Below are positions 1,754 to 26,900 of a stretch of 64,000 bases of DNA, piece after piece (position 1 is the first letter of the stretch; each line of letters opens with the position of its first letter). Made by a program: the position numbers and the translations under genes. Origin of the DNA: Naegleria gruberi (taxonomy: Eukaryota); assembly GCA_000004985.1 (NCBI GenBank), contig GG738860.1; one strand, written 5' to 3'. The notes beneath the pieces were generated by a model, which was not told the DNA's origin, searched no databases, and worked only from the letters and a program-made list of their open reading frames with translations.

Positions 1754-2771
1754 TTATTGTTCTGTGGTGGTGGTGGTAGTAGAGGCAGACGCGTTGTTGT
1801 CATTATTCTTATTGTAAAGTTGATAATAATTGGTGTAGGATGGATAATTCATTTCAATTCTCTTTTGACAACCTTTAGCTGTTGTTTGGTGGAATTCTTT
1901 AGGGAGGAAGGTGAGTGCCCAATCATAAATAACATTGGGAATGAGGCCTCCAGGTGTAACCTGTGTGACACACCAAAATTCACATCTCTTTTTTATAATG
2001 ATTATTGTAAAATATTGTAAATTATTGTCAGCTTACATTTTCATCTATTGGGCTAACTTTCATACCCAAAAATAAAACAGTGGTTCTAACATATTCTGAT
2101 TTAGTTTCCTTTGGGAATGAATCTGCACTCTTACCAATCATCAAGTAGGTATTAGTTTTTTCATCGTATTTCTCTGCATTGACTGTCATTAAATCACGTG
2201 AGCTCACAATTAAATTCCCCTTCTTGACTAAATATTCCAAAACTTGATTTTGTGGCTAAATTATTTCCAATTATTATTATTATTAATATTATTTCACAAA
2301 ATAATTACCTTTCCAGGAATGTTAAAAATTTGTACAATTTCTCTTCCAGCTTCTCTGTTGTCCCACAAATAACGAAAATCATACGCTCTCAAAACATCAT
2401 AAAACACTTGAATTGGATAATTAACAATCATCTTGTACTTGTGTCTGACTGTTAAATGAGAATGTTCTTCACTAATGGTTTTAGATCCTCCTTCACCATT
2501 TAATTTCTTCCACATGATTCTATCCTCTTCCTCGAATAATAATTTATAGTCACCATCCTTATCCTCAATTTCACTCTCTAATTTATCAAAATCCGAAAAT
2601 TCCTATTTCCACAATTTTTCCTTGGTCAAGCATTAATTTCCATCACACAAAACATACCACAAGAGGAAATTTATATTGTTCAAATTTTTCAAAGCTATCG
2701 GAAACTATCTCTTCAAGCTTTGGTTTGATGAAGAGTGATTGTGCAGGTGTCGACGAGAACCATCCAGCCAT
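1754..2771 (-). CDS. START (StAR-related lipid-transfer / PCTP-like) domain protein, about 4 exons
   Basis: Exon translations are MAGWFSSTPAQSLFIKPKLEEIVSDSFEKFEQYKFPLV / EFSDFDKLESEIEDKDGDYKLLFEEEDRIMWKKLNGEGGSKTISEEHSHLTVRHKYKMIVNYPIQVFYDVLRAYDFRYLWDNREAGREIVQIFNIPGK / PQNQVLEYLVKKGNLIVSSRDLM...MKVSPIDEN / RCEFWCVTQVTPGGLIPNVIYDWALTFLPKEFHQ...*. YDVLRAYDFRYLWD matches the PCTP YDVLMDIDYRKQWD signature. Introns begin GTATGT, GTAATT and GTAAGC. Confidence 0.5.
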
Positions 2772-2895
2772 TTTTTATTGTTGTGTGTTGCAATAATTTG
2801 GAAGGTGTTGGAGGCATAGGCGGAATACTGAACTCCGCTGTACTTACTGATTTCTCGTCCCCAAGCAGGGCAAGACAATTAGTAATAGAGAGAGC

Positions 2896-4195
2896 TTATA
2901 AATTCCACATTGGACGATGATTTGGTTCTTTGAGGGATGGTACTGCTACGAGTTCATTATTGTTTTCCTTCACTTCAACAATTACATTGGACATTTCATC
3001 CATTTCATCAAAGATTAAATGTTCGAGTGATCTGAATGGTTTAACCCAGCCCTTTATCTGGGAAGCTCTCATTCTCTCATCTTTGCATCTGTAGGTGACA
3101 ATATTGAAATTGGATCTTTTCCAATAGGGAGCTAATTTAGCTTCCTCTTCATTGTCATTCTCAAAGAACGTTTCATTAATTCTCGAGAGGAAACCCTCAT
3201 GGGAGTCATGTTGACTTGCTGATGGTGGGGGTGTAATTAATTCTCTACCAACTGTTTGATTAATCATATCAGTACTCTTCTTTTTGAAATCAGTCCACTT
3301 TTCCCATAATTCTTGCTTGTTAAGAATAACTTTGGTGTATAATTTGATGCTCGCGTATTTAGGCCACATTGTTGAGCTATTTAAAATATGAGCTATTTTC
3401 AAACCATTTGATGTCCAATAGGCACAATTTCCTCTTTCTGCAATTCCAGAAAACCATGAAAAGCCCTTAAATAAGTTATAAATTGGTCCATTAACCATAC
3501 TATATTTGGCCATATTCAAATCACCCAATTTTTGAGTTTCCACAAAATATTCATGCATTTGTTTAATGTATTCTTCTGGCCATTCCTCAAATCTGAAAGA
3601 AATCATTGTTCTCGAATAAATTCCACCTTGTTCATTACCATCATCCACTGTACATTTACTGCATGTTTAATTCACAACATGTCAACCAATATATAATTAT
3701 TCCATTAAACATACCTCGGATGTCCAAACAAATAATCATCAGCAGGTATAAAATTCACCATTCTATGACCTGGTTTTCCAACAACTATTACAAAGATGAC
3801 AAAATATTCAGAATAATATTTCAACAATTAAAATACCTACTATTCATCACTATTGATTTTCCATCTTCTGGATTAGTATATCGAATAGCAGAGTGACCAT
3901 ACGGATTCACTGATGAATCCGAACTAAATATCCTCGTCGTTAACAATGAAGGAGTCACATAAATATATTCAAAAGCAGGAGCCTTCTTCTTCCCCAGCAG
4001 AGAATCAATCTCTGTTAATGCTGTTTCTTTATTAATCACCTCCCTCATATCTTGATGCTGAATTGCTTTAGAAAAACATTGTTTCTTCATCATTGCTCTT
4101 GAAAAAGGATAATCATTATTCTTGTTGATTAATAATTTCCGAGATAAAGTAAAAGCTGTAGTAGTTGTACTAAAACGCGATAATGATCTCAACAT
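2896..4195 (-). CDS. conserved hypothetical protein, possibly a permuted papain-fold (NlpC/P60-LRAT/PPPDE-like) His...Cys enzyme; 3 exons
   Basis: ORFs at 3821-4228 and 2896-3648 are joined by a small exon (VVGKPGHRMVNFIPADDYLFGHP). Splice sites are AG|GTATTT and AG|GTATGT. The likely ATG is at 4195 (aaaaaaATGTTGAGA). YGHSAIRY ... GNCAYWTS resembles the His-then-Cys arrangement of LRAT/PPPDE families. This is weak evidence. Confidence 0.4.
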
Positions 4196-4359
4196 TTTTT
4201 TGATTGAATTTCTTTCAGTAAAAGGCAAGGAATAGATTCAATCAAATTCATGTAGTTGCTACTGTGAACTTTCTATGCCATCAGATTGTTAATTGTCAGT
4301 AATTGGTGGAAATAAGTGATTACAAAATATTTTAAACCAATTCGAATATTAGAAAAAAC

Positions 4360-6042
4360 ATGTCAAAGAGACCAGCCGAATCTTCTTCCGAAGATGAAGA
4401 AGAAGATTACTCATCAGAGGAGGAGAATGTACAAGAATCGTCATCAATTAAAACTAAACCAATTCAAGTAAATCCACTCCATGCCGATAAGATTGTTCGA
4501 CAAATATTGATTAAACCCAAATGGCATGCCAAGATTGACAATAAGAGAATTATTAAAAAGTGGAGAGACGAATGTACCAAACAAGGTATATCAAACTCTA
4601 GTTTTGATGTTGGAATTGATATCTTACGTGATATCAAAGCAATTTCCCACTCTGTTCACTATTGTTGTGGATATTGTGGTGCTCAACCAAAGAAGAAACT
4701 ATTCTCTGATCCCGATAGTGATGCAGAAGAATTGAATGAAGATGAAGAACTTTTCGATGGAACTCTTGAAGATAAGAAACCGAGTAAAAAGAAGAAAAAA
4801 GTAATGAGGATTTCATATTCGGACGATGAGGAGTATAATGATGATGATGGTGAAAGAAGATCATATAGGAGGTCAACCAAGTTTTGTCTTTGTCCATGTG
4901 CTCATTGTGCATTTAAGGAACAGAAAGTTGGACCAGATGTATGTGTTGAGAAGGAAGATTGGATTCCAGAAGAGTTGACTGAAAGATTGAAGAAACATTT
5001 GAATTCTTTGGTGGAGAGTACACCTAAGGAGGAATGGGATTGGCATCCTGGTTCAAATCAACAAGTTCTCGATATTATCCATCCTTCATTGTATTGCTAT
5101 TCGAAAGAGCATAGTATTTTGAAAGGGGATACGAAAAAAAAGTTGGTAAAGAATATGAAACAGATTAACACTCAATGGCTACCAACAGATTTTGAAGTTG
5201 ACAAACAAGGAAATGTCAAACCACTTTCCTATATCAATAACATTAATCCAACATCACAGAAAGAATTACAAGATACTATTTGTGAGGTCTTGTCACATTT
5301 AACTCAACCAGTCAAGAAATTTGTCAAGTTCAAAAAGAAGGTTCAAGTAATTGTCAAGGCAGCAAATGTAATTGTCACTCCAGAACAAGGTTTCTATCCA
5401 GGTGGTACTTGGCACTCAGAAGGGGATACTGAGAATATTGTAGCTACTGCCATCTTTTATTATGAATGTCAAAATGTGAAGGAAAGTGTTTTGGAATTTA
5501 GATCTTCATTGGATGAGGAAAGTTTTTTTGGTATTGAGCAAGATAATGTAAAACAAGCTTGGGACAGATGTAATGTAAGTTACCTTAATTCAATATTCAT
5601 CAATTAATTTCTCAAATTTCTTTGAAAGATTCATGATCGTGATAAATTATTCACAATTTTGGGAAATGTCAAAACCACAGAAGGAAAATGCATCTTCTTC
5701 CCAAATACCCATCAACACAGAGTTAGACATTTCTTCCCAAAGGATCCAACTGAGGTTGCCACCAGAAAAATTCTTGTCTTTTTCTTTGTTGATCCAGAAA
5801 AGCCAATTGTTTCAACTTCAAACATTGATAATCAGAGGAGAGATGCTGCCATTTCGAATGCATTCCCTCTCGTTAAAAAGTTACCTTATCCAATTCTTAT
5901 TAAGGAGATTATTCCATTCCTTCCTTTGATGAGTAAGGCACAAGCCGAAGAGGTTCGTGAGCAATTGATGGAGAGTAGAAAGTACAAAAGGGATGAACAA
6001 AATGAATTATACGAAAGAGAATTCTCATTATGTGAACATTAA
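4360..6042 (+). CDS. DUF4246-like protein with acidic N-terminus, 2 exons (4360-5574, 5629-6042)
   Basis: A long ORF with a Ser/Glu/Asp-rich N-terminus. CRCN|GTAAGT gives a 54-nt intron, then ag|IHDRDKLFTILGNVKTTEGKCIFFPNTHQHRVRHFFPKDPTEVATRKILVFFFVDPEKP. The FPN..QHRV..F...DPT....RKIL.FF.VDP block is, from memory, the DUF4246 signature. Confidence 0.5.
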
Positions 6043-7763: not shown

Positions 7764-8936
7764 TTATGATTGTTGGGTAGTTGTTTGTTGTTCAGTTGTT
7801 GTGGATGGAGTTGAAGAAACAAAGAATGATTTGATAAGGGCAGCAAAATTGTTGGCCATGTCATCACTTGGGAATTGAGCAAAACCGTGGACAACCTTTG
7901 GAGTTCTGAAATGTTTGAGTGTAGATGTACCATTAGAAGCTTCAGTAACAACACGAGCAAATTCAGCAGCTTCATCTCTCAAAATGTCATATTCAGCAGT
8001 AATGACGAAACCTCCAGGAAGCTTTGAGTAAACCTTAGCTCTAGCATCAGGATCACGAGTATCCAATGCACTCATAACTGAAAAGTATGGATTGGCAGCA
8101 GCTTCTTCATCTGAAACTTGGGTTCCAAGAAGATATCTCCAAAACTTCTCAAGAACTGGACTATCCAAAACAAATCCAAAATCTCCAAATAATTTGTAAG
8201 ATTCAAACTTGGTTCTATTAGCAGGATAATAGTGAAGAGCTGGATAGAAGAGAGCTTGTTGATGAATTTTTGGAATTTGTTCCTTCTTGACAATTTCCTG
8301 ATCTGCCATCAATAACCTAACAAGGGCATGTGAAGTAATATGACCACCAGCAGAGTCACCAGAAACAGTGAGTTGATTAAGATTGGCATTATACTTTTCA
8401 TCCCTCAAATTCTTTCCAACCCAAGTCAATGCATTCAATAAATCATTCAAACAAGCTGGGAAAACATTTTCTGGAGCTTTTCTATATCCAACACTGACAA
8501 CTACAAATCCCTTCTCTGACATTTTTCTACAGAATGAATCATAAACGTCAATATGATTTAAAACCCATCCACCACCATGAGTATAAACTAATACTGGATA
8601 TCCACCTGGACGATGTTGTTTTGGTGTGTAAATTCTCAATAAATATTGTGCCATATCACTTGTTGAATCCATCTCTTTCAAATACAATTCCGATGATGAA
8701 ATATTATATTGAATTTGATGAGTAGTTTTTTGCAATAAACTAGATTCCATAGTAGTATTTCTAACCTTGTACAATTCCTGTCTGAATTTTACAATATCTG
8801 CAAATCTAACAGATAATTTAAATACCATACTCTTATAATATAATTGGAATGATAAATCAGGAAATAAAATCAACGGATACAATGCATAGGCAACAAGCAC
8901 CAACAAGAGTGCCAAAATTCCGAATGCCACCTTCAT
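7764..8936 (-). CDS. alpha/beta-hydrolase fold-3 esterase/lipase (arylacetamide deacetylase / HSL-like), N-terminal TM anchor
   Basis: HGGGW oxyanion motif (YTHGGGWVLN) and GDSAGG nucleophile elbow are present. The N-terminus MKVAFGILALLLVLVAYALYP is hydrophobic. The ORF track extends to 9167, but the first plausible ATG is at 8936. Confidence 0.8.
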   Translation of the reverse strand: MKVAFGILALLLVLVAYALYPLILFPDLSFQLYYKSMVFKLSVRFADIVKFRQELYKVRNTTMESSLLQKTTHQIQYNISSSELYLKEMDSTSDMAQYLLRIYTPKQHRPGGYPVLVYTHGGGWVLNHIDVYDSFCRKMSEKGFVVVSVGYRKAPENVFPACLNDLLNALTWVGKNLRDEKYNANLNQLTVSGDSAGGHITSHALVRLLMADQEIVKKEQIPKIHQQALFYPALHYYPANRTKFESYKLFGDFGFVLDSPVLEKFWRYLLGTQVSDEEAAANPYFSVMSALDTRDPDARAKVYSKLPGGFVITAEYDILRDEAAEFARVVTEASNGTSTLKHFRTPKVVHGFAQFPSDDMANNFAALIKSFFVSSTPSTTTEQQTTTQQS

Positions 8937-9967: not shown

Positions 9968-10452
9968 TTACAATAATTTCAAATGTTTTGTAACAGTATC
10001 AATTAATTCTACAGGAGCTGGACCAATTCCAAGTACTGTTTTCGATCCAGCTTCAATTTGAGTTCTTCCAGCATCAACAACAAGATAACAATTCAAACGT
10101 TGTTGTAAACATTTTTGAAATAAATTATCCAATTCCTTATCACTATCTGCTTTAAGACAAATCTTAGCTTCAGCTGTTACTTCCCAGTCATGTAAATATT
10201 GTTTCCATTGTTGCATATCTTGGTTGGTGATTTGTGTTGGCTCTGAATTTGATGATGAAAATAATAATTGAGTTTGAGCAAAATAGGAGGTGTTTTCATA
10301 GAGAATATTTCTATAGAGACCGACAGCTGCATGACAACATTGAGCAGCAATCTTTCCTTTACCCATATTCAAATCATTTCTAACAACAAATACCATCTTG
10401 TAAGCCTTTGATGTCGGGAATGATTTCATCAAATATTCTTGATATTTTTGAT
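9968..10452 (-). CDS. PTRH2: peptidyl-tRNA hydrolase 2 (PTH2) catalytic domain; 5' part lost in the 491-N gap
   Basis: MVFVVRNDLNMGKGKIAAQCCHAAVG ... DAGRTQIEAGSKTVLGIGPAPVELIDTVTKHLKLL* matches the PTH2 family consensus, including its typical HLKLL end. Confidence 0.8.
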
Positions 10453-10943
10453 NNNNNNNNNNNNNNNNNNNNNNNNNNNNNNNNNNNNNNNNNNNNNNNN
10501 NNNNNNNNNNNNNNNNNNNNNNNNNNNNNNNNNNNNNNNNNNNNNNNNNNNNNNNNNNNNNNNNNNNNNNNNNNNNNNNNNNNNNNNNNNNNNNNNNNNN
10601 NNNNNNNNNNNNNNNNNNNNNNNNNNNNNNNNNNNNNNNNNNNNNNNNNNNNNNNNNNNNNNNNNNNNNNNNNNNNNNNNNNNNNNNNNNNNNNNNNNNN
10701 NNNNNNNNNNNNNNNNNNNNNNNNNNNNNNNNNNNNNNNNNNNNNNNNNNNNNNNNNNNNNNNNNNNNNNNNNNNNNNNNNNNNNNNNNNNNNNNNNNNN
10801 NNNNNNNNNNNNNNNNNNNNNNNNNNNNNNNNNNNNNNNNNNNNNNNNNNNNNNNNNNNNNNNNNNNNNNNNNNNNNNNNNNNNNNNNNNNNNNNNNNNN
10901 NNNNNNNNNNNNNNNNNNNNNNNNNNNNNNNNNNNNNNNNNNN
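10453..10943. other. assembly gap (491 N)
   Basis: Run of n. ORFs that span it are artefacts. Confidence 1.
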
Positions 10944-11296
10944 TGTGTTCTTGTGATGACATTTTTTAATGAGTTGGAATTATTTTGAAAATAATCACAT
11001 GAGGAATAAATTGCAGAATTGAACATCAATCTCGAGCCAATAAATTCACAAACAATTAAGAACTCTCCAATTAGACTTTAGATAGTTAAGGGATTGTTGA
11101 CGGAAGAGAATTTCATGTTTTATAGTTAGTATTTATAGAAATTAATAACAATAATAATTTGTACTTCACAACAGGAAAGTTGAAGAAACAATAATTTTCA
11201 AGTGGAAACTTTACAATTTCTTTCATCAAGAGGATTATCCAATCAATCAATTATTGAAATAAAAAAAAATTCAAATCACCCAGATCTTCTTTGAAC

Positions 11297-13834: not shown

Positions 13835-16800
13835 TTATACAATAACAGGAGGAAGTCTCTCTCTTGAAATTGGACGAGACAGAGCTCGCTTCTCTGCCTC
13901 ATATTCTTCTATTTTCTCTCTAAGGGATTGAATCTTGTGTCGTTGCATTTCGATTTCCTTCAAAGCTTGTTCTAATGATGTAATACCACCAAGGTCCTTT
14001 AGTTCCAAAGATGATGAAGTTATATCGGTGCTCTTCTTTCCAATCTTGGACTCGAGCTCCTTGTCTTTAAGTTTTTGCTTTAGAGATCTAACTTCCTTTC
14101 TCAGGTCATTAATTTCCTTGATGAGGACAACATTTTCATTCATGATTCTCTTATTATCTGACTTGGAGGTTTCTGTTGCTTTAACAAGCTTCTTCTTGAG
14201 TGATTCGACTGTTTTTTCGAGGTAGGATCTTTGTCTTTCATATTCCTTTTGAATGTCAAAGTCCATTTCTTGAGTAGTAATCTTTTCAGAGACGTAGGTT
14301 TGGTAAAGCTTGGTAACCTCTTCTTTAAGCTCCTTTGGCTCTTGAATTAATTGTGCAACCTTGTAAATATCTGCACGAATTCTCTTCAATAGAGTGTCAT
14401 TATCTTTGACTTTAAAGTTCAGTCTTTGAATTTCCTTGACTCTTCCATCAATCTTGAGTTCGAGATCCTTGATTGAGAGAATTAATCTATCATTCTTCTC
14501 CTTAGCCTTTTCCAATTCTTTTCTCATCTTCTTGGATTGCTTTCTTAAACTGGTAATTTCTTCCTTACTTGGTTTGATTTGTTCTTGGAGAGTTGAAATC
14601 TTGTATTCTAAAACAAATCTGAATTTTTCAAGTTCTTGGTTTTGTCTCTTCAACTTGAAAATTCTCTTTTCCTTGTCAATAATGGTTTCTTCTCTTTCCT
14701 TATTTTCCTCACTCATCTTTTGAATATCCTCTTGATATTGCTTATTGAGATTTTCTGCTCTTTGCTTCTTTTCTTCCAACTTTTCAATAAGTTCTAGTTT
14801 TTGTTTCAAAGTCTTTTGTAAGGCAATAAATCTGTCATTCCACTTGTTAGCTTCACTCTTGGCTTCATTGTAGCTGTCGTTCATCTTTAACAACTTCTTT
14901 TCATACATTTCTTTCAAGATCTTGATTTCCTTATCTTGATCCTCTTCCATTTGATTTTTAATTTCGGAAAATTTCTTGTCCAACTCGACCTTCTCATCTT
15001 GTAATGTAACAATAGATCCATCTTTTCTCTTAATTTCATCTTCATATTCTTCCGTAATATCTGTGAGCTCTCTCATGTGCATTTCCTCCTTATTCTTGGA
15101 ATCATCTAGGATTTGCTTCTTCTCCTTCTCTCTGTCTCTGTTGAGTTCGGAAATTTGTTCAAGAGAATTGTGCAATCTCTCGTTAAAGTCTTGTTCCAGA
15201 GCTTTGATTTTTTCTCTGTGTTTTTCTATCAACTCATCGATTTTCTTCTCGTACTCATCTGTTACACTTTTCTTCTCTTGCAAAATACTTTGAATTTCCT
15301 CTTGTTTCTTTGTAAGTTCAAGATTGAAGCTTTTTGCTTGTTCTCTGAGAGCATTATTGAATTCAATTTCCTTTTTCTTTTGCTCGTATTCATTGTCTGA
15401 CTTTAATTCTGCAACTTTTGCTTGAAGCTCAGCAATTGTGGTATTCTTTTCTTCCCATTCTGCTCCTGAAATCAAAATTTCTTCCGAATATTTTGTTTCC
15501 TTCTTAGTTTTACCTCCATCTCTGTCTCTTATTTCCACAATACCCAGCATACCATCTTCACCTGAACTGAATAAGAAAGAATCATCCCAAGCTTTAGAAA
15601 TTCTTGTCACAGGACCTGAGTGCAAGTATAGTTTGTCTTCTATATACTCCAGATTTGGAAATGAATGCACAGTAATAGCACCAGTCTCTAGACCACCAAA
15701 TATCATCTTTAATCCTTCAGAGTACTCCATACAAACCAATGTATTATCTCCCAAATCATATTCTGTTTGTGGATTACCTTCACTGAAGCCCTTAATCTTG
15801 TTATCTGATCCAGTAACAAAAATACTCTTTCCGTCTGTGGCGACAGATGTGTATCCAACATTCTTATTAGTATGGTGAATGGTTCTCTTCTCAGTTTTTA
15901 CAACATATTCGTACACAGCACCATCCATACCAACACTCAGTACTCTAGTATCATCATCAGTCCATTGAAGAGCTCTGATTTTACCATTGTGGCCCCTGAG
16001 GGCAGATATTAATTGGAGAGTGTAGGTATTGTAAACGTTGATTACGTTACCGTGAGCTGCTGCAAAGTAATGACCACCATTACTGAACTTTACCTCACCA
16101 CAATTTCTTACCAAGAAAGATTTCTGCTCTCTAATATCATCTCCCAAAATATCCATAAATCTCAGTTTATCTTGGAAACCAACAACCAAGTGCAAACCAC
16201 TAGGGTGAATTGCTATTGAGTAGGCCTCGGCTGGGAATTGTTTTACAATATTCAGTGTATTATCCAAGTAGTTCCATACTCTGACAGTCTTATCTGTACT
16301 GCAGGTCGCAATAATTGGCTTTCTAATAGCAGTATCCATTCCCGTTATGGCCTTTGAGTGGAATGGAATTGTGAGATATTCAAATTTAATGTCATCTTCC
16401 TTTTGTAAAATATCAGAACTACTGATATTCAAAGTAAATATTTGAGCTGAACTTGTTGAAAGGACCAAGTTTTCATTTGAAGGACTCAAATTAAAATTGA
16501 GAATTTTGTGATCGAGATAGGTTTCGCTCAGTTCCTTATATTGAGTGCTATTCATAACTCGTAAAGTCTTTGATCTTGAATACATTTCCTTTTCATCGGC
16601 CGATTTTTCAAATATTGAAACAACTCCATTCTCACCTCCACATACAAACCCAGTTCCATAAGGAATGAGTGCTGTTATACTAAGTCCATCTGATGGAGAT
16701 GAGGGTAAAATAAATTTAAATTCATTCTTTTCAACGAAAAATAAATCTCCGTTAGCATTTGAAACAACTAACTTCTCTTCATCTAACCAGGTATGAGACA

Positions 16801-17467
16801 GATAAGGCTCATGATCTCTTTTGCCAATACCGTCTGTCACAACTTTGAGTTTTTCTCTATCATCTAGGGTTAATAATTTAAATACACCATTACCAGTAAC
16901 ACAAATAGTTTTGCTATCTGGACTAATTGAACATTGAAAGACTGGATCTCCATCCACTGAAGATGTACAAATCGTATCAACTATCCTAGTTTTACCTTCC
17001 ATAGACCACAAAACTAAATTATATTCTGGACCTCCTCCTTGGGCTACCAAATATTTACCATCCAATGAGAAAGCCATACAAACAAATTCATGAGATCCAA
17101 CACCTGGATGAGAAATCGTCTTTTTGACTGTGTATGTTGTTGTTTCATAGAGTTTAATAAGAGGTGGGTTTTTTTTGAGGTCAGTGATCTTTACAGTTGA
17201 TGAAAGTGGTTTTGTTTTTTCTGCAACAGCCAAATATTTTCTATTAGGTGCTAGACAAAGAGCTGATATTCCTTCCGTATTATCGGACCCTGTTTTAATC
17301 TTCCTCACTCCATTTGTTTGATGAAAAACTAGGCATCTACCTGAAGGGTAAACGACACATGTATCGTTGACATTATCTCTAATGTACCAGATATTATTTT
17401 TTACCTTTGCATTAAGACCAAACACATTTTTAAGTGAGAGGATGTGGTTTTGAAATGGTTCAGTCAT
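13835..17467 (-). CDS. CFAP57: cilia/flagella-associated protein 57 (WDR65)-like: N-terminal WD40 propellers + C-terminal coiled coil
   Basis: A 1210-aa uninterrupted ORF. The N-terminus LKNVFGLNAKVKNNIWYIRDN..VVYPSGRCLVFHQ...LCLAPNRKYLAVAE parallels the CFAP57 N-terminus (..FGL...NNV.Y.D....IFPSG......SPNRRYLAISE). About 650 aa of WD-like repeats are followed by about 550 aa of E/K-rich heptad coiled coil. Confidence 0.65.
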   Translation of the reverse strand: MTEPFQNHILSLKNVFGLNAKVKNNIWYIRDNVNDTCVVYPSGRCLVFHQTNGVRKIKTGSDNTEGISALCLAPNRKYLAVAEKTKPLSSTVKITDLKKNPPLIKLYETTTYTVKKTISHPGVGSHEFVCMAFSLDGKYLVAQGGGPEYNLVLWSMEGKTRIVDTICTSSVDGDPVFQCSISPDSKTICVTGNGVFKLLTLDDREKLKVVTDGIGKRDHEPYLSHTWLDEEKLVVSNANGDLFFVEKNEFKFILPSSPSDGLSITALIPYGTGFVCGGENGVVSIFEKSADEKEMYSRSKTLRVMNSTQYKELSETYLDHKILNFNLSPSNENLVLSTSSAQIFTLNISSSDILQKEDDIKFEYLTIPFHSKAITGMDTAIRKPIIATCSTDKTVRVWNYLDNTLNIVKQFPAEAYSIAIHPSGLHLVVGFQDKLRFMDILGDDIREQKSFLVRNCGEVKFSNGGHYFAAAHGNVINVYNTYTLQLISALRGHNGKIRALQWTDDDTRVLSVGMDGAVYEYVVKTEKRTIHHTNKNVGYTSVATDGKSIFVTGSDNKIKGFSEGNPQTEYDLGDNTLVCMEYSEGLKMIFGGLETGAITVHSFPNLEYIEDKLYLHSGPVTRISKAWDDSFLFSSGEDGMLGIVEIRDRDGGKTKKETKYSEEILISGAEWEEKNTTIAELQAKVAELKSDNEYEQKKKEIEFNNALREQAKSFNLELTKKQEEIQSILQEKKSVTDEYEKKIDELIEKHREKIKALEQDFNERLHNSLEQISELNRDREKEKKQILDDSKNKEEMHMRELTDITEEYEDEIKRKDGSIVTLQDEKVELDKKFSEIKNQMEEDQDKEIKILKEMYEKKLLKMNDSYNEAKSEANKWNDRFIALQKTLKQKLELIEKLEEKKQRAENLNKQYQEDIQKMSEENKEREETIIDKEKRIFKLKRQNQELEKFRFVLEYKISTLQEQIKPSKEEITSLRKQSKKMRKELEKAKEKNDRLILSIKDLELKIDGRVKEIQRLNFKVKDNDTLLKRIRADIYKVAQLIQEPKELKEEVTKLYQTYVSEKITTQEMDFDIQKEYERQRSYLEKTVESLKKKLVKATETSKSDNKRIMNENVVLIKEINDLRKEVRSLKQKLKDKELESKIGKKSTDITSSSLELKDLGGITSLEQALKEIEMQRHKIQSLREKIEEYEAEKRALSRPISRERLPPVIV

Positions 17468-18049
17468 TTTTTTTGTAGATTATTAGAGAAAAGTTTTGGC
17501 GGGAGTTCTTTAACGGTTGATGGTTTGAGGTTGAAAGATTGTAAGTTGTATCAGTTTCTGATATCACTAAAAAACAAGAAAGTGTTGAATATTACAATGA
17601 AAGTATTTAAATATACTAAAACTGAATATCAAAGTGAACTCGTTACTAACAAAAGTGGTAATGTAGTACCTCAATAGTGATTACAGTTAACTAAGAATTG
17701 GAAATACGTAAACTTGTTTTGATACTTCATCACATTGTTATTATATATAATATAATAAATAGGGATTGAAGTATCGCTCGTTTATGGAAATGTGAAATGG
17801 CACATTTATGTATTTAAACAATGATGCATTCAATTTAGAACGAGCTGCTTGTCAATGCAAATAGAAACCTGAAGCGTTGGTCACTGAATCATCTTCCTTA
17901 TTTCTTGCCAACTCCGTTTTCAGTCTGTTCTGACGCCACCTTCTAAAAGAGCTTGTTAAAAGCAGCTATTCAGGTAGTCACTATTGCAACTTTCAAGAAC
18001 CTTCACCACAGAACTGTGGGCGAAAAAAAACAATATTTAACGTTAAAAA

Positions 18050-20470
18050 ATGGATGCCCGTGTTGCAGTAACGAAAGGTACGTTAAGAGAGAGATGAATT
18101 TAAGAATATTAAGGCCTCTGTTCATACATCATCAATATAATACCATTTTAATATCGGACTTGAATAAATAGATGATTTTGAGTATGGACAAATATTGGGT
18201 GAAGGTGCTTTTGGCCAAGTTCGTTTGTGTGTCCATAAAGCAACAGAACTTCAATACGCAGCTAAAGTATTGAAGAAGGAAAAACTTATTAAGGCCAAAC
18301 AAACGAAATATGTCAAATCAGAGAAGGAAATATTATTGGAGATGGATCATCCTAACATTTCAAAATTGTGTTATACCTTCACTGATGAAAAGAAGTTGTA
18401 CTTTGTGTTGGAACTTATTTCTGGAGGAGAATTATTTGAGTGTATTATAAAGAGCAATGTAGCAAATGATAATAAGGAATTGAAAAAAGTTGCTCAATTT
18501 TACATGGCTCAAATGTTGGAAGCACTGATCTATATTCACAGTCTTAATATTTGTCACAGAGATCTTAAACCCGAAAATCTAATGCTTACAGGATCTGGTA
18601 ATTTAAAATTGGTGGATTTTGGTATTGCAAAGAAAATTGATAGACCAGGTCCGAATACATTCTGGTAAGTTAAAATATGAAAATCTTGAAAATCTTAATT
18701 TCCAATAGTGGTACTGCTGAATATTTGGCGTAAGTTTTCTTATCAACTTGATTATATTGATGATTTCTCAATAGACCCGAAGTTGTCAGTAATAATGAAT
18801 ATGGTATTATGGTAGATTGGTGGTCTTATGGTTGTATTATTTACGAATTATTTTGTGGAAAGAGTCCTTTTTACAGCTCTAGTATGGCTGTAACTTGTCA
18901 AAAGATTGTTGATAGAGACATCTATTGGCCAAAGACAATGCCACCAGATGCCAAGGATTTAATTAATGGACTTCTCACTACAGACCCAGAAAAGAGAATT
19001 GGAGGTCCTGAATTAAGAAAGCATCCATTTTTCAAAGGAATTGATTGGAAGAATTTAAACAAGGCTGACCCACCTCTGGTTCCAGATCTTTTGTTCAATG
19101 ATGAAGATAGAGGTGTTGGTATTAAAATGTCCATGTTTGAACCTAGAGTGGATCAGGAAGACGTCATGATAAATGCTCACGTTTTCAAATCGAGATCAAG
19201 CAGTAAAGGATCAACGCAAGATGCAATCAAGAGAAGCAACTTGCTCAGAAAAATGTACCCTCAATTGTGTGCTCTCCCAGAGAGACCAAGACCAATCAAT
19301 TCAAGAATTATTCAAAACTCTGAAAATGTTCCAAAATCCAATGATAAGGTAGAAGAGGAGGAGGTAGATGATAGGGGTGATACTCAATCGGAATGTACTA
19401 GTGTCAATGAGGTCAGTAAGAAGGTCGTTATGATTCAAAATGCTGTCGGTTTGAAAACTCCTGTTATCAGGATTGCATTTGGAGAAGGTGACAAGATGGC
19501 TTGTAGTAGTAGTTTCCAAGCAAAAACATTTGGAATTGGAATTGACAGTGAATCTAATGTCATTTTCAATGAATATAAGAATTTATCAACTGTATCCACA
19601 TGTAATTACTTGGAATATTCTCCAAATGGTGAAACACTTGCCTTCGACATGCAAAGACATATTGGTTTGTTGGACTTGAAGAATCCAAAGAAAAAACCAA
19701 GACAATTGGTGGGGCATTCCCTTCCAATTACAAAGGTTTCTTGGCATCCAAAGAGCCACATGTTGGCTGCCGGAGGAAGAGATAACCTGGTGTACTTGTG
19801 GAATGTTGACAGCTCCAAACCAAAGCTTGAGGCTCAAATGGATTCACACAAATCATATATTTCAGATCTTCAATTCCATGCAAAAGATCATCTACTTGCC
19901 AGTGGAAGTGGAGATTTCAAAGTTGTATTCTACGACATTCAAAGTCAGAGAATTGTACAAAAGTACAGTTACCATGAAGATGCAATTCTTGGTGTGAGGT
20001 GGAATCCTAAATTCCCTGACATTTTTGTTTCCTGGTCTTTGGATAGAAGACTAATCTTCTCCGACCGCAGAACTTTCAAACCTATTAAGGTTCTAGCTCA
20101 TAATAGACCTGTGATTCATGCTCAATGGTCACCTGATGGATCAATGCTTGCCACCTGCAGCAAAGATTCCATTAGAATTTGGTCCTATCCATCAATTACC
20201 TCCTCTTTCGTCTACACCAATTCTGAAAGTCTTCCTGGTGAACATCTCTCTTTCGAATGTAATAGCAATTATTTGGCAGTATTGAAATGCAGAGATGATA
20301 CCTCTCCTTCAGTCATTGATACCTCTTCCTTTTCTTTTGTTTCTCCAAATCCACATCCTCAAAACTCACACAAACTCCCAATTACTAGTCTGCAATGGAG
20401 TAATAACAGACCATTCCTTGCCACTGGTTCCTATGATAAGTCTGTTATTTTGTGGGGTGTTGATGAATAA
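18050..20470 (+). CDS. AGC-type Ser/Thr protein kinase fused to C-terminal WD40 repeats; 4 exons (18050-18077, 18172-18664, 18709-18729, 18775-20470)
   Basis: Exon 1 is MDARVAVTK|GTACGT. Exon 2 is DDFEYGQILGEGAFGQV...AAKVLKK...HRDLKPENLM...DFGIAKK...NTFC|GTAAGT (44-nt intron). Exon 3 is a 21-nt micro-exon GTAEYLA|GTAAGT (45-nt intron). Exon 4 is PEVVSNNEYGIMVDWWSYGCIIYEL...HPFFKGIDW, then about 330 aa with WD40-like GH...WD repeats (LAAGGRDNLVYLWNV, LASGSGDFKVVFYDI, LATGSYDKSVILWGV). Confidence 0.8.
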
Positions 20471-20587
20471 ATTTTAAATAATTCAGTGACTTGTTGAATG
20501 GTTTCGGAAGAAGATCCTGTGTATTAAGTTTAGACTTATTTTTTCTAATAATTTACAATGAAATATTTAGTTATTCGAATAGATACC

Positions 20588-21676
20588 TTAGAATACACCA
20601 AATTTATATTGAGGAGGTATTGGAATGTCGTAACCCAATTCCTTCGCAGCTCTGATTGGCCAATATGGATCACCCAAATCCTTTCTTCCAATAAATACTA
20701 AATCAGCTTTTCCTTCTGTCAATATTTGATTGGCTTGTACTGGTTCAGTAATTTTACCAACAGCTGCCACAGGCATTACTTGTCTAACCCTTTCTGCATA
20801 TTTCACTTGATACATTGGAAATGCCATGAGAGCTTGGGATAGTAATCTTGATGAATTACCTCCTGATGAACAGTCAATTATATCAACTCCCAAATCTTTC
20901 AAAATTTCAGCTAACCTCACACTATCCTCAATATCCCAACCATCACTCACATACTCATCACATGATATTCTTACAAATAGAGGCATTGTCTCTGGAATGC
21001 AACTTCTTACTCGACTAACAATTTCAGTTAGAATTCTTATACGATTCTCAAAAGAACCACCAAATTTGTCTTTTCTCTTATTAGATGTTGGTGATAAGAA
21101 GGAATTAATCATATAACCATGAGCTGCATGTATCTCAATCACATCAAAACCAGCCAAGACAGCTCTCTTAGCAGCAGCTACAAAGTCTTCAATCAATTCT
21201 TCCACCTCATCTTCAGTCAACTCTCTCGGAACTCTATGTGATTCATCAAATGCAATTGGAGAAGGTCCAACCACTTCCCATCCTCCTTCTTCATCACTTA
21301 ATGCAGTTCTTCCTAGGGCTTCCCACAATGCACGTGTTGAACCTTTTCTCCCAGAATGAGCCAACTGAATACCAATATGTCCACCTTGTTCATGAGCTAA
21401 ATCCGTAATCTGTTTCAACATTTCCACATGTTCGTCCTTGTAAATTCCCAAACAATGAGGAGTAATTCTTCCAATTTCAGAAACAGCAGATGCCTCCACT
21501 ATAAACAAGCCAGCACCACCTACCACTCTACTGCCAATATGTTGCACATGCCACAGATTAGCAAAACCATCCTTGCTAGAATAGGTACACATTGGAGAAA
21601 CTACAATTCTATTCTTCAAAGTCAATCCTCTAATTGTGTAAGGTTGAAATAACATTGGAGTGTCTGAGGAGGGCAT
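20588..21676 (-). CDS. NADH:flavin oxidoreductase, Old Yellow Enzyme family (YqjM-like)
   Basis: MPSSDTPMLFQPYTIRGLTLKNRIVVSPMCTYSS.DG....WH..H.G.R..GGAGL..VEA.AV...GRI ...HSGRKGS... matches the YqjM-type OYE N-terminus. The ORF track extends to 21853, but the OYE-homologous Met is at 21676. Confidence 0.85.
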   Translation of the reverse strand: MPSSDTPMLFQPYTIRGLTLKNRIVVSPMCTYSSKDGFANLWHVQHIGSRVVGGAGLFIVEASAVSEIGRITPHCLGIYKDEHVEMLKQITDLAHEQGGHIGIQLAHSGRKGSTRALWEALGRTALSDEEGGWEVVGPSPIAFDESHRVPRELTEDEVEELIEDFVAAAKRAVLAGFDVIEIHAAHGYMINSFLSPTSNKRKDKFGGSFENRIRILTEIVSRVRSCIPETMPLFVRISCDEYVSDGWDIEDSVRLAEILKDLGVDIIDCSSGGNSSRLLSQALMAFPMYQVKYAERVRQVMPVAAVGKITEPVQANQILTEGKADLVFIGRKDLGDPYWPIRAAKELGYDIPIPPQYKFGVF

Positions 21677-22015
21677 GATTGCCTTTTTGGCTTCTGCCAA
21701 TCCTGTTAGAGCTTGAATAATAACACCAACCCAGTTGACCATGATGACGAAGATGTGAAGAGAATTTTTTCTAATAGTTTTTTCATGCTTGCTGAATATT
21801 TGTTGGACTTGAACAAAAGTGGTGCGAATTAATGCGAAGAACACCCCGTCCAATGAATCCGATCCTTAAATTGACAATTTTGTGCATTCTTCAAGCTCAA
21901 TATTTCGTATTTTGTGTTTTACAAATCCTCAAGATGCTAAACAAAGATAATAATATTTGCATTCACCTCTACTTAATAATATGGTGTTGTTGCGATCCTT
22001 TTTTAATAGAAAAAA

Positions 22016-23926
22016 ATGTTTAGACAAGCTTGTTCTTCATTGCTCTCATCATCTTTGCCAACAAAAACAACAAGAGCAAATTATTATTACAATAGGAGAT
22101 TGAATAATTCCTCTCTATTGAAATCCATCATTCAATACAATACCTTCTCTACATGTCTCTCACAAAATAATGCCTCGGAGAAGAAAACCAAATCATCAGC
22201 AGCAGCAACAACAACAGGAGGATTAATTACAACACCAATTTATTATGTAAATGGACCACCACATATTGGACATTTATTTACAACTATCCTCTCCGATTCC
22301 ATCTATTTGTACCATAAACAATTGAAGAATCGTCATGATATGATCTTTTCCACTGGTACTGATGAGCATGGTAGTAAAGTGCAAAGAACAGCCATTAAAA
22401 ATCTTCCCAATCAAAATACTTTGGATGATGAAACTATTAACAAGTCGTGTGTTGAATTTTGTGAGAAAATTTCTGAAACATTCAAGACCATGATGAAGGA
22501 TTTTAATATTCAATATACTCACTATTTAAGAACAAGTGCCACAAGGGAACATAGAGAAACAGTGGAAAGAGTTTGGAAGGAATTGGAAAAACGAGGAGAT
22601 ATTTATTTGGGAGAATATCAGGGATGGTATTGTACTACTGATGAAGCTTTCACAACAGATATTGAACAAGTTAAAATTACCAATGAAAAGGGAGAGGAAG
22701 AATTAGTGACATTGAGTAAAGCTTCAGGAAATAGATGTGAATTCGTGACTGAAAAGAATTATAAATTCAGATTGAGCAAATATATGGATAGAATTCAACA
22801 ATGGTTGGAAGAAAATCCAAATACAGTCAAACCAAAGGAAAGATACAATGAATTGATGGAATTAATTAAGAAGGAGAAGGAAAGAAGTCCAGAATCTCTC
22901 GATTTAAGTATTTCTAGAACAAGAGATCGTGTACAGTGGGGTATTCCAGTTCCAGATGATTCGGAACATACAATTTATGTTTGGCTTGATGCTTTGACAA
23001 ATTATCTTACTGCTGGTTCCACTCTCGCTAATGAATCACTCAATTGGCCACCAACTGTCCAAATTATTGGAAAAGACATTCTCAAATTCCATGGTATTTA
23101 CTGGCCTGCTTTTTTGATGGCTCTTGGAAAGGAACTTCCTGAAACCATTCTTGTTCACTCATATTGGCTTGTCAATGATGTAAAAATGTCCAAGTCTTTA
23201 GGCAATGTTGTATCACCATATGATTTGTTGAATCAAACTGGTGTTGAACATGACTTGTTACGTTACTATTTATTGAGTGAAGCTGTACTCAGTAATGATA
23301 GTAGTTTCAGTATGGTTAGATTCCCTGTTAAGGTGAATGAATTGGCTGATATTTTCGGAAATTTATTGACCAGAGCTTTTAATAAGAAATTCCATGCTGA
23401 AGAGGGAGAAATTCAATACAGAAATCTTCAATTTGATTGCCCTAATGCCGAACAAAATCCAAATCAAACTGCTCAAGAACTTATTGAATTACTCAATGAT
23501 TTACAAGAACAAGTTAGAAATGCCTATGAAGAAAGATGTGAAGTGAGATTTGCCAATCTTGCAGCCACAAAGATTTTAAAGAAGTGTAATCAATTATTTG
23601 ATGAAGTTAAACCATGGATTCTTGTTAAGGATGCAGTGGCTAATGCTCAACAAATTGAGGAGTTAATGTTTCTTGTTGCTGAAACTTTGAGAAACTGTTC
23701 TATTGCCCTTTACCCAGTTTTACCTCACAAGATGAATCAATCATTGAGCTTTTTCAATCAGTCCACACCATTGTTGGAAGATATTGGTTTCTGTAAGAAG
23801 GGTACTTCTATTCGCGTCAAATCCAATCCAGAAATCCTTTTCAAAAAGATAGAGGAAGTAAAACAACAAGAACATTCATCAAGAGGAAGAGGAAAGAACA
23901 AGGAAAAGAATGCTGAAAAGAAATAA
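22016..23926 (+). CDS. methionyl-tRNA synthetase, mitochondrial type
   Basis: Class-I aaRS HIGH motif (PPHIGHLFTT) and KMSKS motif (KMSKSLGNVV) are present, plus the MetRS-type anticodon-binding helical C-terminus. The N-terminal MFRQACSSLLSSSLPTKTTRANYYYNRRL looks like a mitochondrial presequence. Confidence 0.85.
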   Translation: MFRQACSSLLSSSLPTKTTRANYYYNRRLNNSSLLKSIIQYNTFSTCLSQNNASEKKTKSSAAATTTGGLITTPIYYVNGPPHIGHLFTTILSDSIYLYHKQLKNRHDMIFSTGTDEHGSKVQRTAIKNLPNQNTLDDETINKSCVEFCEKISETFKTMMKDFNIQYTHYLRTSATREHRETVERVWKELEKRGDIYLGEYQGWYCTTDEAFTTDIEQVKITNEKGEEELVTLSKASGNRCEFVTEKNYKFRLSKYMDRIQQWLEENPNTVKPKERYNELMELIKKEKERSPESLDLSISRTRDRVQWGIPVPDDSEHTIYVWLDALTNYLTAGSTLANESLNWPPTVQIIGKDILKFHGIYWPAFLMALGKELPETILVHSYWLVNDVKMSKSLGNVVSPYDLLNQTGVEHDLLRYYLLSEAVLSNDSSFSMVRFPVKVNELADIFGNLLTRAFNKKFHAEEGEIQYRNLQFDCPNAEQNPNQTAQELIELLNDLQEQVRNAYEERCEVRFANLAATKILKKCNQLFDEVKPWILVKDAVANAQQIEELMFLVAETLRNCSIALYPVLPHKMNQSLSFFNQSTPLLEDIGFCKKGTSIRVKSNPEILFKKIEEVKQQEHSSRGRGKNKEKNAEKK

Positions 23927-23945: not shown

Positions 23946-26900
23946 TTATTGGTTGTTTGAAAGAACAAAGTAGCTGTTTCTGCACTTGACAGCAGCCTTT
24001 CTGACCTTTCTCTTCTTATCGTCCAAGCATGCTTCTAAACCTTTAATAATGTCCTTCTTTAAAGGATAAATTTCATAATACTTGTATCCGTTAGTGAGCT
24101 CCAATAATGCCTCAACTGAGAGTATTCTTACTGCTTGGGATTTTTTGAATTTACAGGTATCAAGAAGGATTGGAACAATTGATGACAAGTGGACAGACAT
24201 TTCTTCCTTGGCATCTGATAATAAAGTTAAAGTAGTCTTGATTGCTGCATACAATAAATCTTCCGAATTATTGTCTTGCTCTATCAGAATTTGCCTCATT
24301 TCCAAAAACTTTAAAACAATAGGGAAAATATTCTTAACCTCACTGAGAATAACCTTTGTTGGCACATTATGAATTAAATTAGATAATGCTAAAAGAATGG
24401 AGCCAATGATATGTGGTTGGGTTACTGTGTTAATAGAGTCCATCAACTTTCTCACATTGGTGGCAAAGAAACGTTGTTTGTACAAGACTTGAATAATGGC
24501 ATGATTTTCCTTGTGGATGGATGTTTCATCCTCTCCAATAGCAATCAGAAAACCTTCAGCAACCTTCTTATTAACCTTTGAACTATTATATTCAAAGACG
24601 AGAGAACCACACAACAATGAAGAGTACCTGTCTGCGTGAGGAACATAGGCTCCTCTCATGACCAATCCTTTCAAAATCCACGATACCATCTCAATGTATC
24701 TTTCAGCACTCTCACTATCTCCATTATATACGGTAAGCATTTGTGAAAAAGCATCAAACACTGTGGCATTACAAATTGTAATCAATTGTTGGAATTCAGT
24801 AGAATCCAAAGGCAACTTGTTTAATACTGAACCAACAAGTTGGGCAATACATTTGGTGACCTGGCTAGGTTGTTCTCCCTTCAATGCCATTTGTAATAAA
24901 GAATCCGTCATTGTTATCAAATTACCCATTCCAACAGTTGGTCTGCATGCTATTACAATAGCAGATAAAACTGAAATAAAGTTTTTAAGTCCAGTGCTAG
25001 GAACTGAATTGGCATATTGTAAAACACTATCCAGTACAACTTGTTGTAATTCATTTTCCAAAGATCTACCCAATAAAAGTGTCAAGAAGGAGAAATTTCC
25101 TTGATTGTGATGAACATGTGCACATTCTGAATCACTGCAATCCATTGTATCAGAATCGTCAACCATTTGTGAGGATGAATCAGTAACTGACATTTTAACA
25201 ATTCTTTGAATATAAGAAACCTTATCATGGGCTGGTATCAGTGATACGTCCAACGAGGTAATAGTCTCAAAAACTTTCACTCTCTCGTGCTCATAATGAG
25301 ATTCAGAAATTGGAATGCTTTCAATTCTCTCGAATAGTCTATGTGTAATGGAAGGTGTCATGGATGGACATACCTTTCCAACTGCTGAAATATTAGAAAG
25401 AATACGATTAATATGTTCAGACTTATTTTCACAACCATACAATGCACCGAAAAGTGGTACCAAAATATCTTCGCTAACAATATCTGGAGCATATTTGTAA
25501 ATCCAAGCAATATCCTTAATGACTCTTTCCTTATACTCTTCCAGTGAAGTGGCATGCAGTAAACTGAAAGATTTGTTTTCTTCACCGTACGATTTGAGGA
25601 GTATCCTTGAAACATAGATATCCCTCAACAATGTAGATGGTATTCTGAAAATGGCAATTCTTGAAATAGTTTCGACCATGACTAGGATCATTTCCTTGTC
25701 ATTCTTTGAAAATTCCTCTTCATAAATGGATAAAAATACTGTCTGTACTTGGCTAATAAGATTGAATACAACTTCTGGAAGTTGATTCTCACCTTTTTGT
25801 TCTGCAACAGCTTGCAAGAGTTGTGTTATCATGAGTAAACTTCCATATAACTTATCCTTGGTATCAGATTCACTCAGAGTAGCAACCAATTCAGGCATTA
25901 CTCTATTAAATACCATCATGGAAATTTCAAATGTTGGAACAGCGCAAGCATAAATCATTCTGGCATATTGAGCTGCAAACTTTGGTTCTTTTGACTTGAG
26001 TTCCAATAGGGCAGTACGTAAAATAGCTTCAATATTTGGAATGTCAAATGGTTTGTTACTTGGATCGTTTGGAATGATAACTATTCTTGCAATCTTGGTG
26101 ATGGATTCATAGCACTTCTTCATGACATCCATAGAGTTGGTTTTGACTGATTCAGCCTTGATGTATGACCAAATTTCTGTCAAATATTCTCTACTATTTA
26201 CTTCTCCAAATTTCTCAATGCAATAACACAAATAGTCCAATGTCTCTAACTTGGTATCGACGAGATCACTAGAAAGCTTTTCCAAAAGGAATGGAAATAG
26301 TGTAGGTGCAAAGAATTTGTTGCACCCAAAACAAAGTTTCAAACTCCTAGATAAATCCTCTCTGGTTATTCCTCTTGTATCATTTGCTGGTGGTGTATAG
26401 GTAATTGGGAAATAACAACTAGTAATGTCAAACAAGTCATCAGATACTGCTGATAATATTTTAGAGCTCAGTTCAGAGTCATCAAATATAGCAATAACTT
26501 TAGGAATCAAATTGAAACAGTATAATAAATTGCCAGGATCTCTTTCACCTTCCAATGATTGAATAAAACCATTCAAAAAGTCAATTGTTCGAACAATGGA
26601 AGGAAATCTGTCTGCCAATAGAGAAAACCATTCAAAGCACAAACTTCTAGTTTTTGTTGCATGAGCCACACCTGAAGTACTTCCAATTGATTGAATATTG
26701 ACATTTTCAAAGAATTGAAGAACTACATTAATAGCTTGCTCACTTGAAATGTATGAACTCCACTTTTTAAATAAAGAAAACAAGCATGGTAATAATGTAG
26801 CTAGACAATCAAAATCATAAAATCTATCACCAATAAATCTCAAAAGACTTGCTACCAGCTTGAGTTGTGTTGTTTGTTTTGTTTCATCAGTTTCACTTCC

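Follow-up and report, generated by a model that had tools for sequence, protein, structure and literature searches.

A Naegleria gruberi gene with a 21-nucleotide micro-exon joins an AGC-type kinase domain to a C-terminal WD40 propeller

AGC kinases are normally defined by regulation through a C-terminal tail, and in most of them the tail domain and its hydrophobic motif stabilize the active N-lobe. Kinases that instead end in a C-terminal WD40 propeller for protein interaction include LRRK2 and other ROCO proteins, Vps15, Dictyostelium kinases of the STE11, CMGC and CZAK types, the Dictyostelium alpha-kinases (MHCK A-D) and bacterial PkwA, but the kinase domains of these proteins are all non-AGC. 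Most of the propellers in these fusions are seven-bladed. The Dictyostelium kinome contains 14 kinases with WD40 repeats (PMC1420674), and both that survey and the Phytophthora kinome papers describe WD40 repeats only together with non-AGC kinases. Here we describe a locus in a 64,000-nucleotide (nt) stretch of Naegleria gruberi DNA (contig GG738860.1 of assembly GCA_000004985.1; hereafter the window, G+C 32.8%), where a real four-exon gene fuses an AGC-type kinase domain, a linker and an eight-bladed WD40 propeller.

To build the gene model, we read positions 17400-21200 of the window and listed the open reading frames (ORFs; translation table 11). The gene begins with an ATG at 18050, two codons after an in-frame TAA, and ends with a TAA at 20468-20470 on the same (+) strand. 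Its spliced coding sequence of 2238 nt encodes a protein of 745 amino acids (aa), laid out as a kinase domain (aa 13-267), a linker of ~130 aa and the propeller (~aa 397-745). All three introns are GT-AG, with lengths of 94, 44 and 45 nt. A first-pass annotation of this DNA had proposed two introns of about 45 nt on either side of a 21-nt exon; both are present, and their removal restores the frame. The 94-nt intron, which follows a first exon of 28 nt, was absent from that annotation. The junction between exons 1 and 2 yields ...VTKDDFEY, the same sequence found in N. lovaniensis, N. fowleri and Willaertia magna, where the codon and phase of intron 1 are also kept. The product of exon 4 is colinear with its orthologues up to the final residues (...SYDKSVILWGVDE).

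The kinase domain matches Pfam Pkinase with an E value of 1.7e-75, and the domain scan that had been suggested as a check thus returned Pkinase as well as WD40 repeats. The catalytic motifs are all present and are conserved in the family (GEGAFG at aa 19-24, Lys41, Glu60, HRD at 138-140, DFG at 158-160 and APE at 181-183). The activation segment (NTFCGTAEYLAPE, aa 171-183) spans exon 2, the micro-exon and exon 4, aligns with KTFCGTPEYLAPE of AKT1, and contains a phosphorylatable Thr172 within NTFCGT (i.e., a PDK1-type activation-loop threonine). When the protein was compared with the PDB by phmmer, the best sequence matches (60/60) were all AKT, SGK, PKA, PDK1 or PKC, with E values of 1e-68 to 1e-57 for AKT1/2, SGK1, PKA and PDK1. 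The bit scores were 235 for AKT1, 230 for AKT2, 218 for SGK1, 210 for yeast Tpk1, 205 for PDK1, ~200 for PKA and 197 for PKC. Structural comparison with Foldseek likewise placed PDK1, PKA and PKC at the top, with PDK1 as the best fold match (template modelling score 0.82-0.86, 37-38% identity). These results support membership of the kinase domain in the AGC group, and at this level the earlier description of the domain as PKA/PDK1-like was borne out.

Catalytic-domain similarity is highest to AKT/PKB, SGK and PKA, with which the Naegleria protein shares TFCGTxEYLAPE, an HxFF..I.W end motif and a PPxxP start of the C-lobe tether; however, it differs from these kinases in having no Pkinase_C domain, turn motif, F-x-x-F-S/T-Y, PH domain or regulatory-subunit logic. 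The alignment with AKT1 ends just past PPLVPD, at the start of the C-lobe tether. Pfam gave no match to Pkinase_C (PF00433) in the tail and linker of either the window protein or its Andalucia homologue, even at E<=10, and none of the kinase-WD40 family members has PF00433 among its precomputed domains, while many RSK matches do. A regular-expression search for the hydrophobic motif (F-x-x-[FYW]-[STDE]-[FYW]) found none at the expected tail position in ten family members, and the RSK controls were positive (FRGFSF). The sole match, FEPYSY in a metagenome homologue, sits at the position of the active-site tether and looks coincidental. An HPFF sequence that the first-pass annotation took for the AGC hydrophobic motif lies inside the kinase domain, where it aligns with HRFF of AKT1, and that assignment does not stand.

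Downstream of the linker, the WD40 model (PF00400) scored 111 bits against a cut-off of 27 and reported four stretches. We modelled the full-length W. magna orthologue with AlphaFold2 as well as the window's own exon-4 propeller, and found a closed propeller fold with eight blades. The WD40 repeats had been recognized before within one ORF; they are present as proposed, but they occupy ~350 aa in eight blades rather than ~330 aa. The propeller of PkwA is among the PDB matches of the Naegleria propeller. Other eight-bladed propellers (Rsa4/Notchless, TBL1XR1/Sif2, ODA16, Cdc4/Fbw7 and Sqt1) share only 12-24% identity with it, and none of them is attached to a kinase.

The W. magna model predicts disorder for most of residues 285-395 between the two domains, with the exception of a conserved motif at aa 332-354. 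Outside the domains, no element is better conserved than this motif. Its 20-residue consensus is R-S-x-x-L-R-x-M-Y-P-x-L-x-x-L-P-x-R-P, and its invariant or near-invariant columns are R334, S335, L338, R339, Y342, P343, L345, P349, R351 and P352. The W. magna model predicts the motif to be helical, at low confidence.

What is known of AGC kinases and of WD40 propellers suggests how such a protein might work. The enzyme is probably an active Ser/Thr kinase that is switched on by phosphorylation of Thr172, and its preferred substrates are probably basic sites, as in other AGC kinases. The most likely role of the propeller would be that of a docking platform for peptides or proteins, bringing in substrates or tethering the kinase to a complex. 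Like PDK1, the kinase has no hydrophobic motif, and control of its N-lobe must therefore differ from that of most AGC kinases; the best candidate for an intramolecular regulatory element that would take over part of the missing tail's role is the linker motif. No computed result points to a specific partner or pathway. The exchange of a tail for a linker motif and a WD40 propeller offers a natural test case for other modes of AGC N-lobe control, even if the architecture would be of little surprise to specialists, since protist kinomes hold many lineage-specific architectures.

Taken as a whole, we put the probability that one four-exon gene encodes a tail-less AGC Ser/Thr kinase with a linker motif and an eight-bladed propeller at roughly 80%. 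Several points weigh against this explanation. The bit scores of AKT, SGK, PKA, PDK1 and PKC are close, and no AGC subfamily stands out. The AlphaFold2 model of the W. magna protein (built on 11 sequences) has a mean predicted local distance difference test score (pLDDT) of 72, and the linker helix has a pLDDT <50; the model therefore lends no support to docking of the linker onto the kinase. Splicing in N. gruberi is backed by comparative evidence, and we infer what the linker and propeller do, as well as the activity of the kinase and the substrates it prefers.

We also considered whether the family may form an unclassified AGC subfamily in which the tail and hydrophobic motif were replaced by the linker motif and propeller, such that the N-lobe would be regulated intramolecularly and not via a hydrophobic motif and the PIF pocket. 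This is a possible but tentative proposal. Unlikely, in our judgement, is that the protein is the functional counterpart of PDK1 (i.e., a master kinase without a hydrophobic motif, whose PIF pocket would dock other AGC kinases and whose propeller would replace the PH domain). PDK1 domains are the best fold matches, at the identity given above, and both proteins lack a hydrophobic motif and carry a non-catalytic C-terminal targeting domain past a linker; some PDK1 motifs are presumably similar as well (GTA in the P+1 loop, Q in ..QKI.. and HPFF..W.NL). By sequence, however, AKT1/2 and SGK1 outscore PDK1, and the C-terminus is a WD40 propeller in which Pfam finds no PH domain. A highly improbable alternative is that the kinase domain is catalytically dead and that the protein acts only as a WD40 scaffold: the AGC tail and hydrophobic motif, which are the usual supports of the active conformation, are indeed missing, but the Gly-rich loop, Lys41, Glu60, HRD, DFG and APE are present and family-conserved, and PDK1 is known to be active without a hydrophobic motif.

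Six residues (G-T-A-E-Y-L) are encoded in full by the micro-exon (TGGTACTGCTGAATATTTGGC), which also carries the third base of the Cys174 codon and two bases of the Ala181 codon. It completes the motif TFCGTAEYLAPE, which is nearly invariant across the family. The 21-nt exon had been described as encoding the APE motif; an exon of this size within the activation segment is real, but it contributes only the A, with P and E encoded by exon 4. Retention of intron 2 results in an immediate TGG-TAA stop (the ORF at 18195-18668 ends ...NTFW), and skipping of the micro-exon in N. gruberi creates a TGA stop across the junction (TG followed by A), so that mis-splicing would wreck the kinase as proposed. 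The same skip in N. lovaniensis or W. magna would keep the frame and remove 7 aa. A 21-nt exon occurs at the same place and in the same phase in N. lovaniensis, N. fowleri, W. magna and the Naegleria-like metagenome contig L004 (i.e., in five genomes together with N. gruberi). Most differences among the five micro-exons fall on third codon positions and most are synonymous, with one amino-acid change in L004 (GTCEYL), while their flanking introns measure 38-150 nt and are not alignable. Because intron retention gives a stop, the motif is nearly invariant and the same exon and phase recur in four other genomes, the micro-exon is not a chance pattern.

For N. fowleri, the gene models come from BRAKER1 with RNA-seq (PMC6831594), and these RNA-seq-guided models provide indirect transcript support for the micro-exon. 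Very unlikely is a main transcript that removes a single intron of 125 nt (18665-18789, acceptor ...GTTGTCAG) without any micro-exon, to give a protein without GTAEYLAPEVVS. Our intron scan did return this interval as an in-frame GT-AG candidate with long open frames on either side, and an ab initio predictor might pick such an intron. Such splicing, however, would take out the P+1 loop together with the APE motif, both near-invariant in all family members; the 21-nt segment is codon-conserved in five genomes between introns that cannot be aligned; and the micro-exon is part of the models of N. fowleri, N. lovaniensis and W. magna as well as of the partial RefSeq model of N. gruberi.

The micro-exon is missing from Acrasis kona, where the gene has a single 35-nt intron elsewhere, and from an intronless homologue (P0008); its origin thus dates to the Naegleria/Willaertia lineage. 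It probably arose when two introns came to lie 21 nt apart in that lineage, and it is constitutive coding sequence for the P+1 loop. As such, it is a clean example of a constitutive 21-nt exon in an intron-poor protist, with a datable origin.

The kinase and WD40 parts belong to a single gene, because exon 4 by itself stays open all the way from the kinase C-lobe through the propeller. In the homologue P0008, a single intronless ORF of 842 aa includes both domains, the complete ORF of a Percolomonas sp. WS transcript holds both domains, and N. fowleri and W. magna have full-length two-domain models; together these bear out the proposed fusion of a kinase and a WD40 region in one gene. A division into two genes, as ORF-based callers have it (157-aa and 553-aa ORFs), is effectively refuted: the table-11 ORF listing does break the locus at 18668/18809, and prokaryote-style calls on metagenome and Logan contigs do give a kinase (155-167 aa) and a WD40 protein (524-575 aa) separately, but the 553-aa ORF begins partway through the kinase C-lobe (MVDWWSYGC...), so that neither piece amounts to a complete domain, and splicing restores one frame. 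P0008 and the Percolomonas transcript each hold both domains, as do the full-length models of eukaryotes.

The reference model of N. gruberi was traced via the cluster to which the N. lovaniensis orthologue belongs. This entry (EFC46008.1/XP_002678752.1) is a "predicted protein, partial" of 267 aa that extends from IDDFEYGQ to GIDWKNL; it includes the micro-exon peptide and lacks exon 1 and everything after residue 276 (i.e., the linker and the WD40 half). Searches of a collection of 5.8 billion sequences found no N. gruberi protein over the linker or propeller, nor does that collection contain the exact 745-aa protein or the product of the 553-aa ORF. About 470 aa, including the whole propeller, are missing from the public protein sets that were searched, and surveys of domain architecture or orthology based on the N. 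gruberi reference proteome will therefore misclassify the gene. The first-pass annotation expected automated gene calling to miss the micro-exon. This was not the case for the N. fowleri, N. lovaniensis, W. magna and partial N. gruberi models, which include it, but in metagenome data, ORF-based calling does break the gene at this exon. On contig L004 (ERZ27315067 k141_1298306, positions 2301-4583), a prokaryotic caller cut the gene at the micro-exon into 167 + 524 aa, and the gene is divided in the same way in Logan and ENA calls for N. fowleri contigs (155 + 575 aa).

Full-length family members occur in N. lovaniensis (734 aa, 77% identity), N. fowleri (770 aa), W. magna (752 aa, 62%), Percolomonas sp. 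WS (869 aa, a complete MMETSP transcript ORF, 43%), Acrasis kona (822 aa, 42%) and the jakobid Andalucia godoyi (789 aa, 40%). When the annotated proteins were mapped back to their genomes, N. lovaniensis, W. magna and N. fowleri proved to share the four-exon structure. Several environmental sequences are also family members, and the clusters without named taxa are environmental. An exhaustive phmmer search with the exon-4 protein found ~9 family-like clusters among 1.84 billion cluster representatives, with generic multi-WD40 proteins ranked below them. A search with a profile of the linker and propeller added no named taxa, and its scores fell sharply, from at least 406 bits for family members (243 for P0158, a truncated member) to at most 258 bits for generic WD40 proteins. 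The family is rare in these searches, uncharacterized and lineage-restricted, with named members that all belong to Discoba (Heterolobosea and the jakobid Andalucia). The orthologues are already in databases as hypothetical proteins, and literature searches (AGC and WD40 in Naegleria or Heterolobosea, the accession and the locus tag) found no paper describing the family. The N. lovaniensis model XP_044550716.1 (734 aa; PYSW02000015.1, at ~8400-8560 of our locus L001) has an aberrant C-terminal end, ...TKPDLSSMLRYSRTMLTSSQ. Its last blade is hidden by a frame shift of one base, and the +1 frame goes on to ...KQPVTSLQWSNNRPFLATGSFDKTVNLWGVE and a stop, as in N. fowleri.

The named members, from Naegleria, Willaertia, Percolomonas, Acrasis and Andalucia, overlap with the taxa positive for the mitochondrial type II secretion system (Gsp). 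Our searches found no family member in malawimonads or hemimastigotes, and the other members are environmental. Proteins Gcp1-3, which co-occur with this secretion system, are Pex7-like WD40 proteins without kinases, and no kinase is listed in the paper on this system (PMC8134430). The family's patchy distribution may follow that of the secretion system, but this is a weak lead drawn from taxon overlap, and weaker than the replacement of the AGC tail that it would extend. If it were true, the family would have escaped phylogenetic profiling, since its N. gruberi model is a fragment with the kinase only.

Table 1 Features of the kinase-WD40 gene and its neighbours in the window. Loci L001 (N. 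lovaniensis), L006 (N. fowleri), L004 (metagenome contig) and L002 are related loci.
Feature	Position	Strand	Description
Exon 1	18050-18077	+	28 nt; encodes MDARVAVTK and the first base of Asp10
Intron 1	18078-18171	+	94 nt, GTACGT...AATAG; position kept in L001 (111 nt), L002 (49 nt) and L006 (121 nt)
Exon 2	18172-18664	+	493 nt; N-lobe and catalytic loop through activation-loop Thr172 (from Pfam, residue map and AKT1 alignment)
Intron 2	18665-18708	+	44 nt, GTAAGT...AATAG
Micro-exon	18709-18729	+	21 nt, phase 2 to phase 2; (C)GTAEYL(A), P+1 loop of activation segment
Intron 3	18730-18774	+	45 nt, GTAAGT...AATAG; position kept in L001 (78 nt), L002 (38 nt), L004 (40 nt) and L006 (82 nt)
Exon 4	18775-20470	+	1696 nt including TAA; single open frame from Pro182-Glu183 of APE through C-lobe and linker to propeller
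HPFF, subdomain XI	19022-19033 (aa 264-267)	+	End of catalytic domain; aligns with AKT1 HRFFAGIVW
Conserved linker motif	19226-19294 (aa 332-354)	+	IKRSNLLRKMYPQLCALPERPRP; family signature outside both domains
WD40 beta-propeller	19421-20467 (~aa 397-745)	+	Eight-bladed
CFAP57 orthologue	13835-17467	-	1210 aa; divergent upstream neighbour
Old yellow enzyme	20588-21853	-	Bacterial type; between kinase gene and methionyl-tRNA synthetase
Methionyl-tRNA synthetase	22016-23923		ORF identical to N. gruberi NEG-M XP_002678753.1

The neighbourhood of the gene is partly conserved. The order CFAP57, kinase-WD40, methionyl-tRNA synthetase is common to the window and contig L004, and the synthetase is also nearby in L001, L002 and L006. 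The CFAP57 orthologue matches human CFAP57 (PDB 8j07) with an E value of 2e-218; the reference set of N. gruberi lacks this exact 1210-aa protein, which was found only in an ENA metagenome entry, and the N. gruberi reference model of CFAP57 probably differs as well. N. fowleri and N. lovaniensis have an actin-family gene upstream of the kinase-WD40 gene, and on its downstream side a gene of ~1078 aa precedes the synthetase. The difference in the upstream gene, CFAP57 in N. gruberi and L004 versus the actin-family gene in the other two species, therefore indicates a rearrangement within the genus that kept the linkage to methionyl-tRNA synthetase.

The old yellow enzyme is of the class of YqjM and the Thermus chromate reductase (E 1e-101, versus 1e-34 to plant OPR). 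A tblastn search found none in the related loci, and in L004 the synthetase directly follows the kinase gene. The enzyme looks like a lineage-specific insertion and was possibly acquired by horizontal transfer.

A crude scan of the window for in-frame GT-AG introns that separate long open frames returned other short candidates of 35-57 nt at 5575-5628 (+), 39462-39518 (+), 51543-51598 (-) and 25339-25373 (-), which suggests that introns of ~45-55 nt are usual in the region. Finally, four overlapping ORFs of 176-353 aa lie on both strands at 9968-11029 (e.g., the - strand ORF at 9968-11029 and the + strand ORF at 10408-10956), an arrangement that usually marks low-complexity or compositionally biased sequence.

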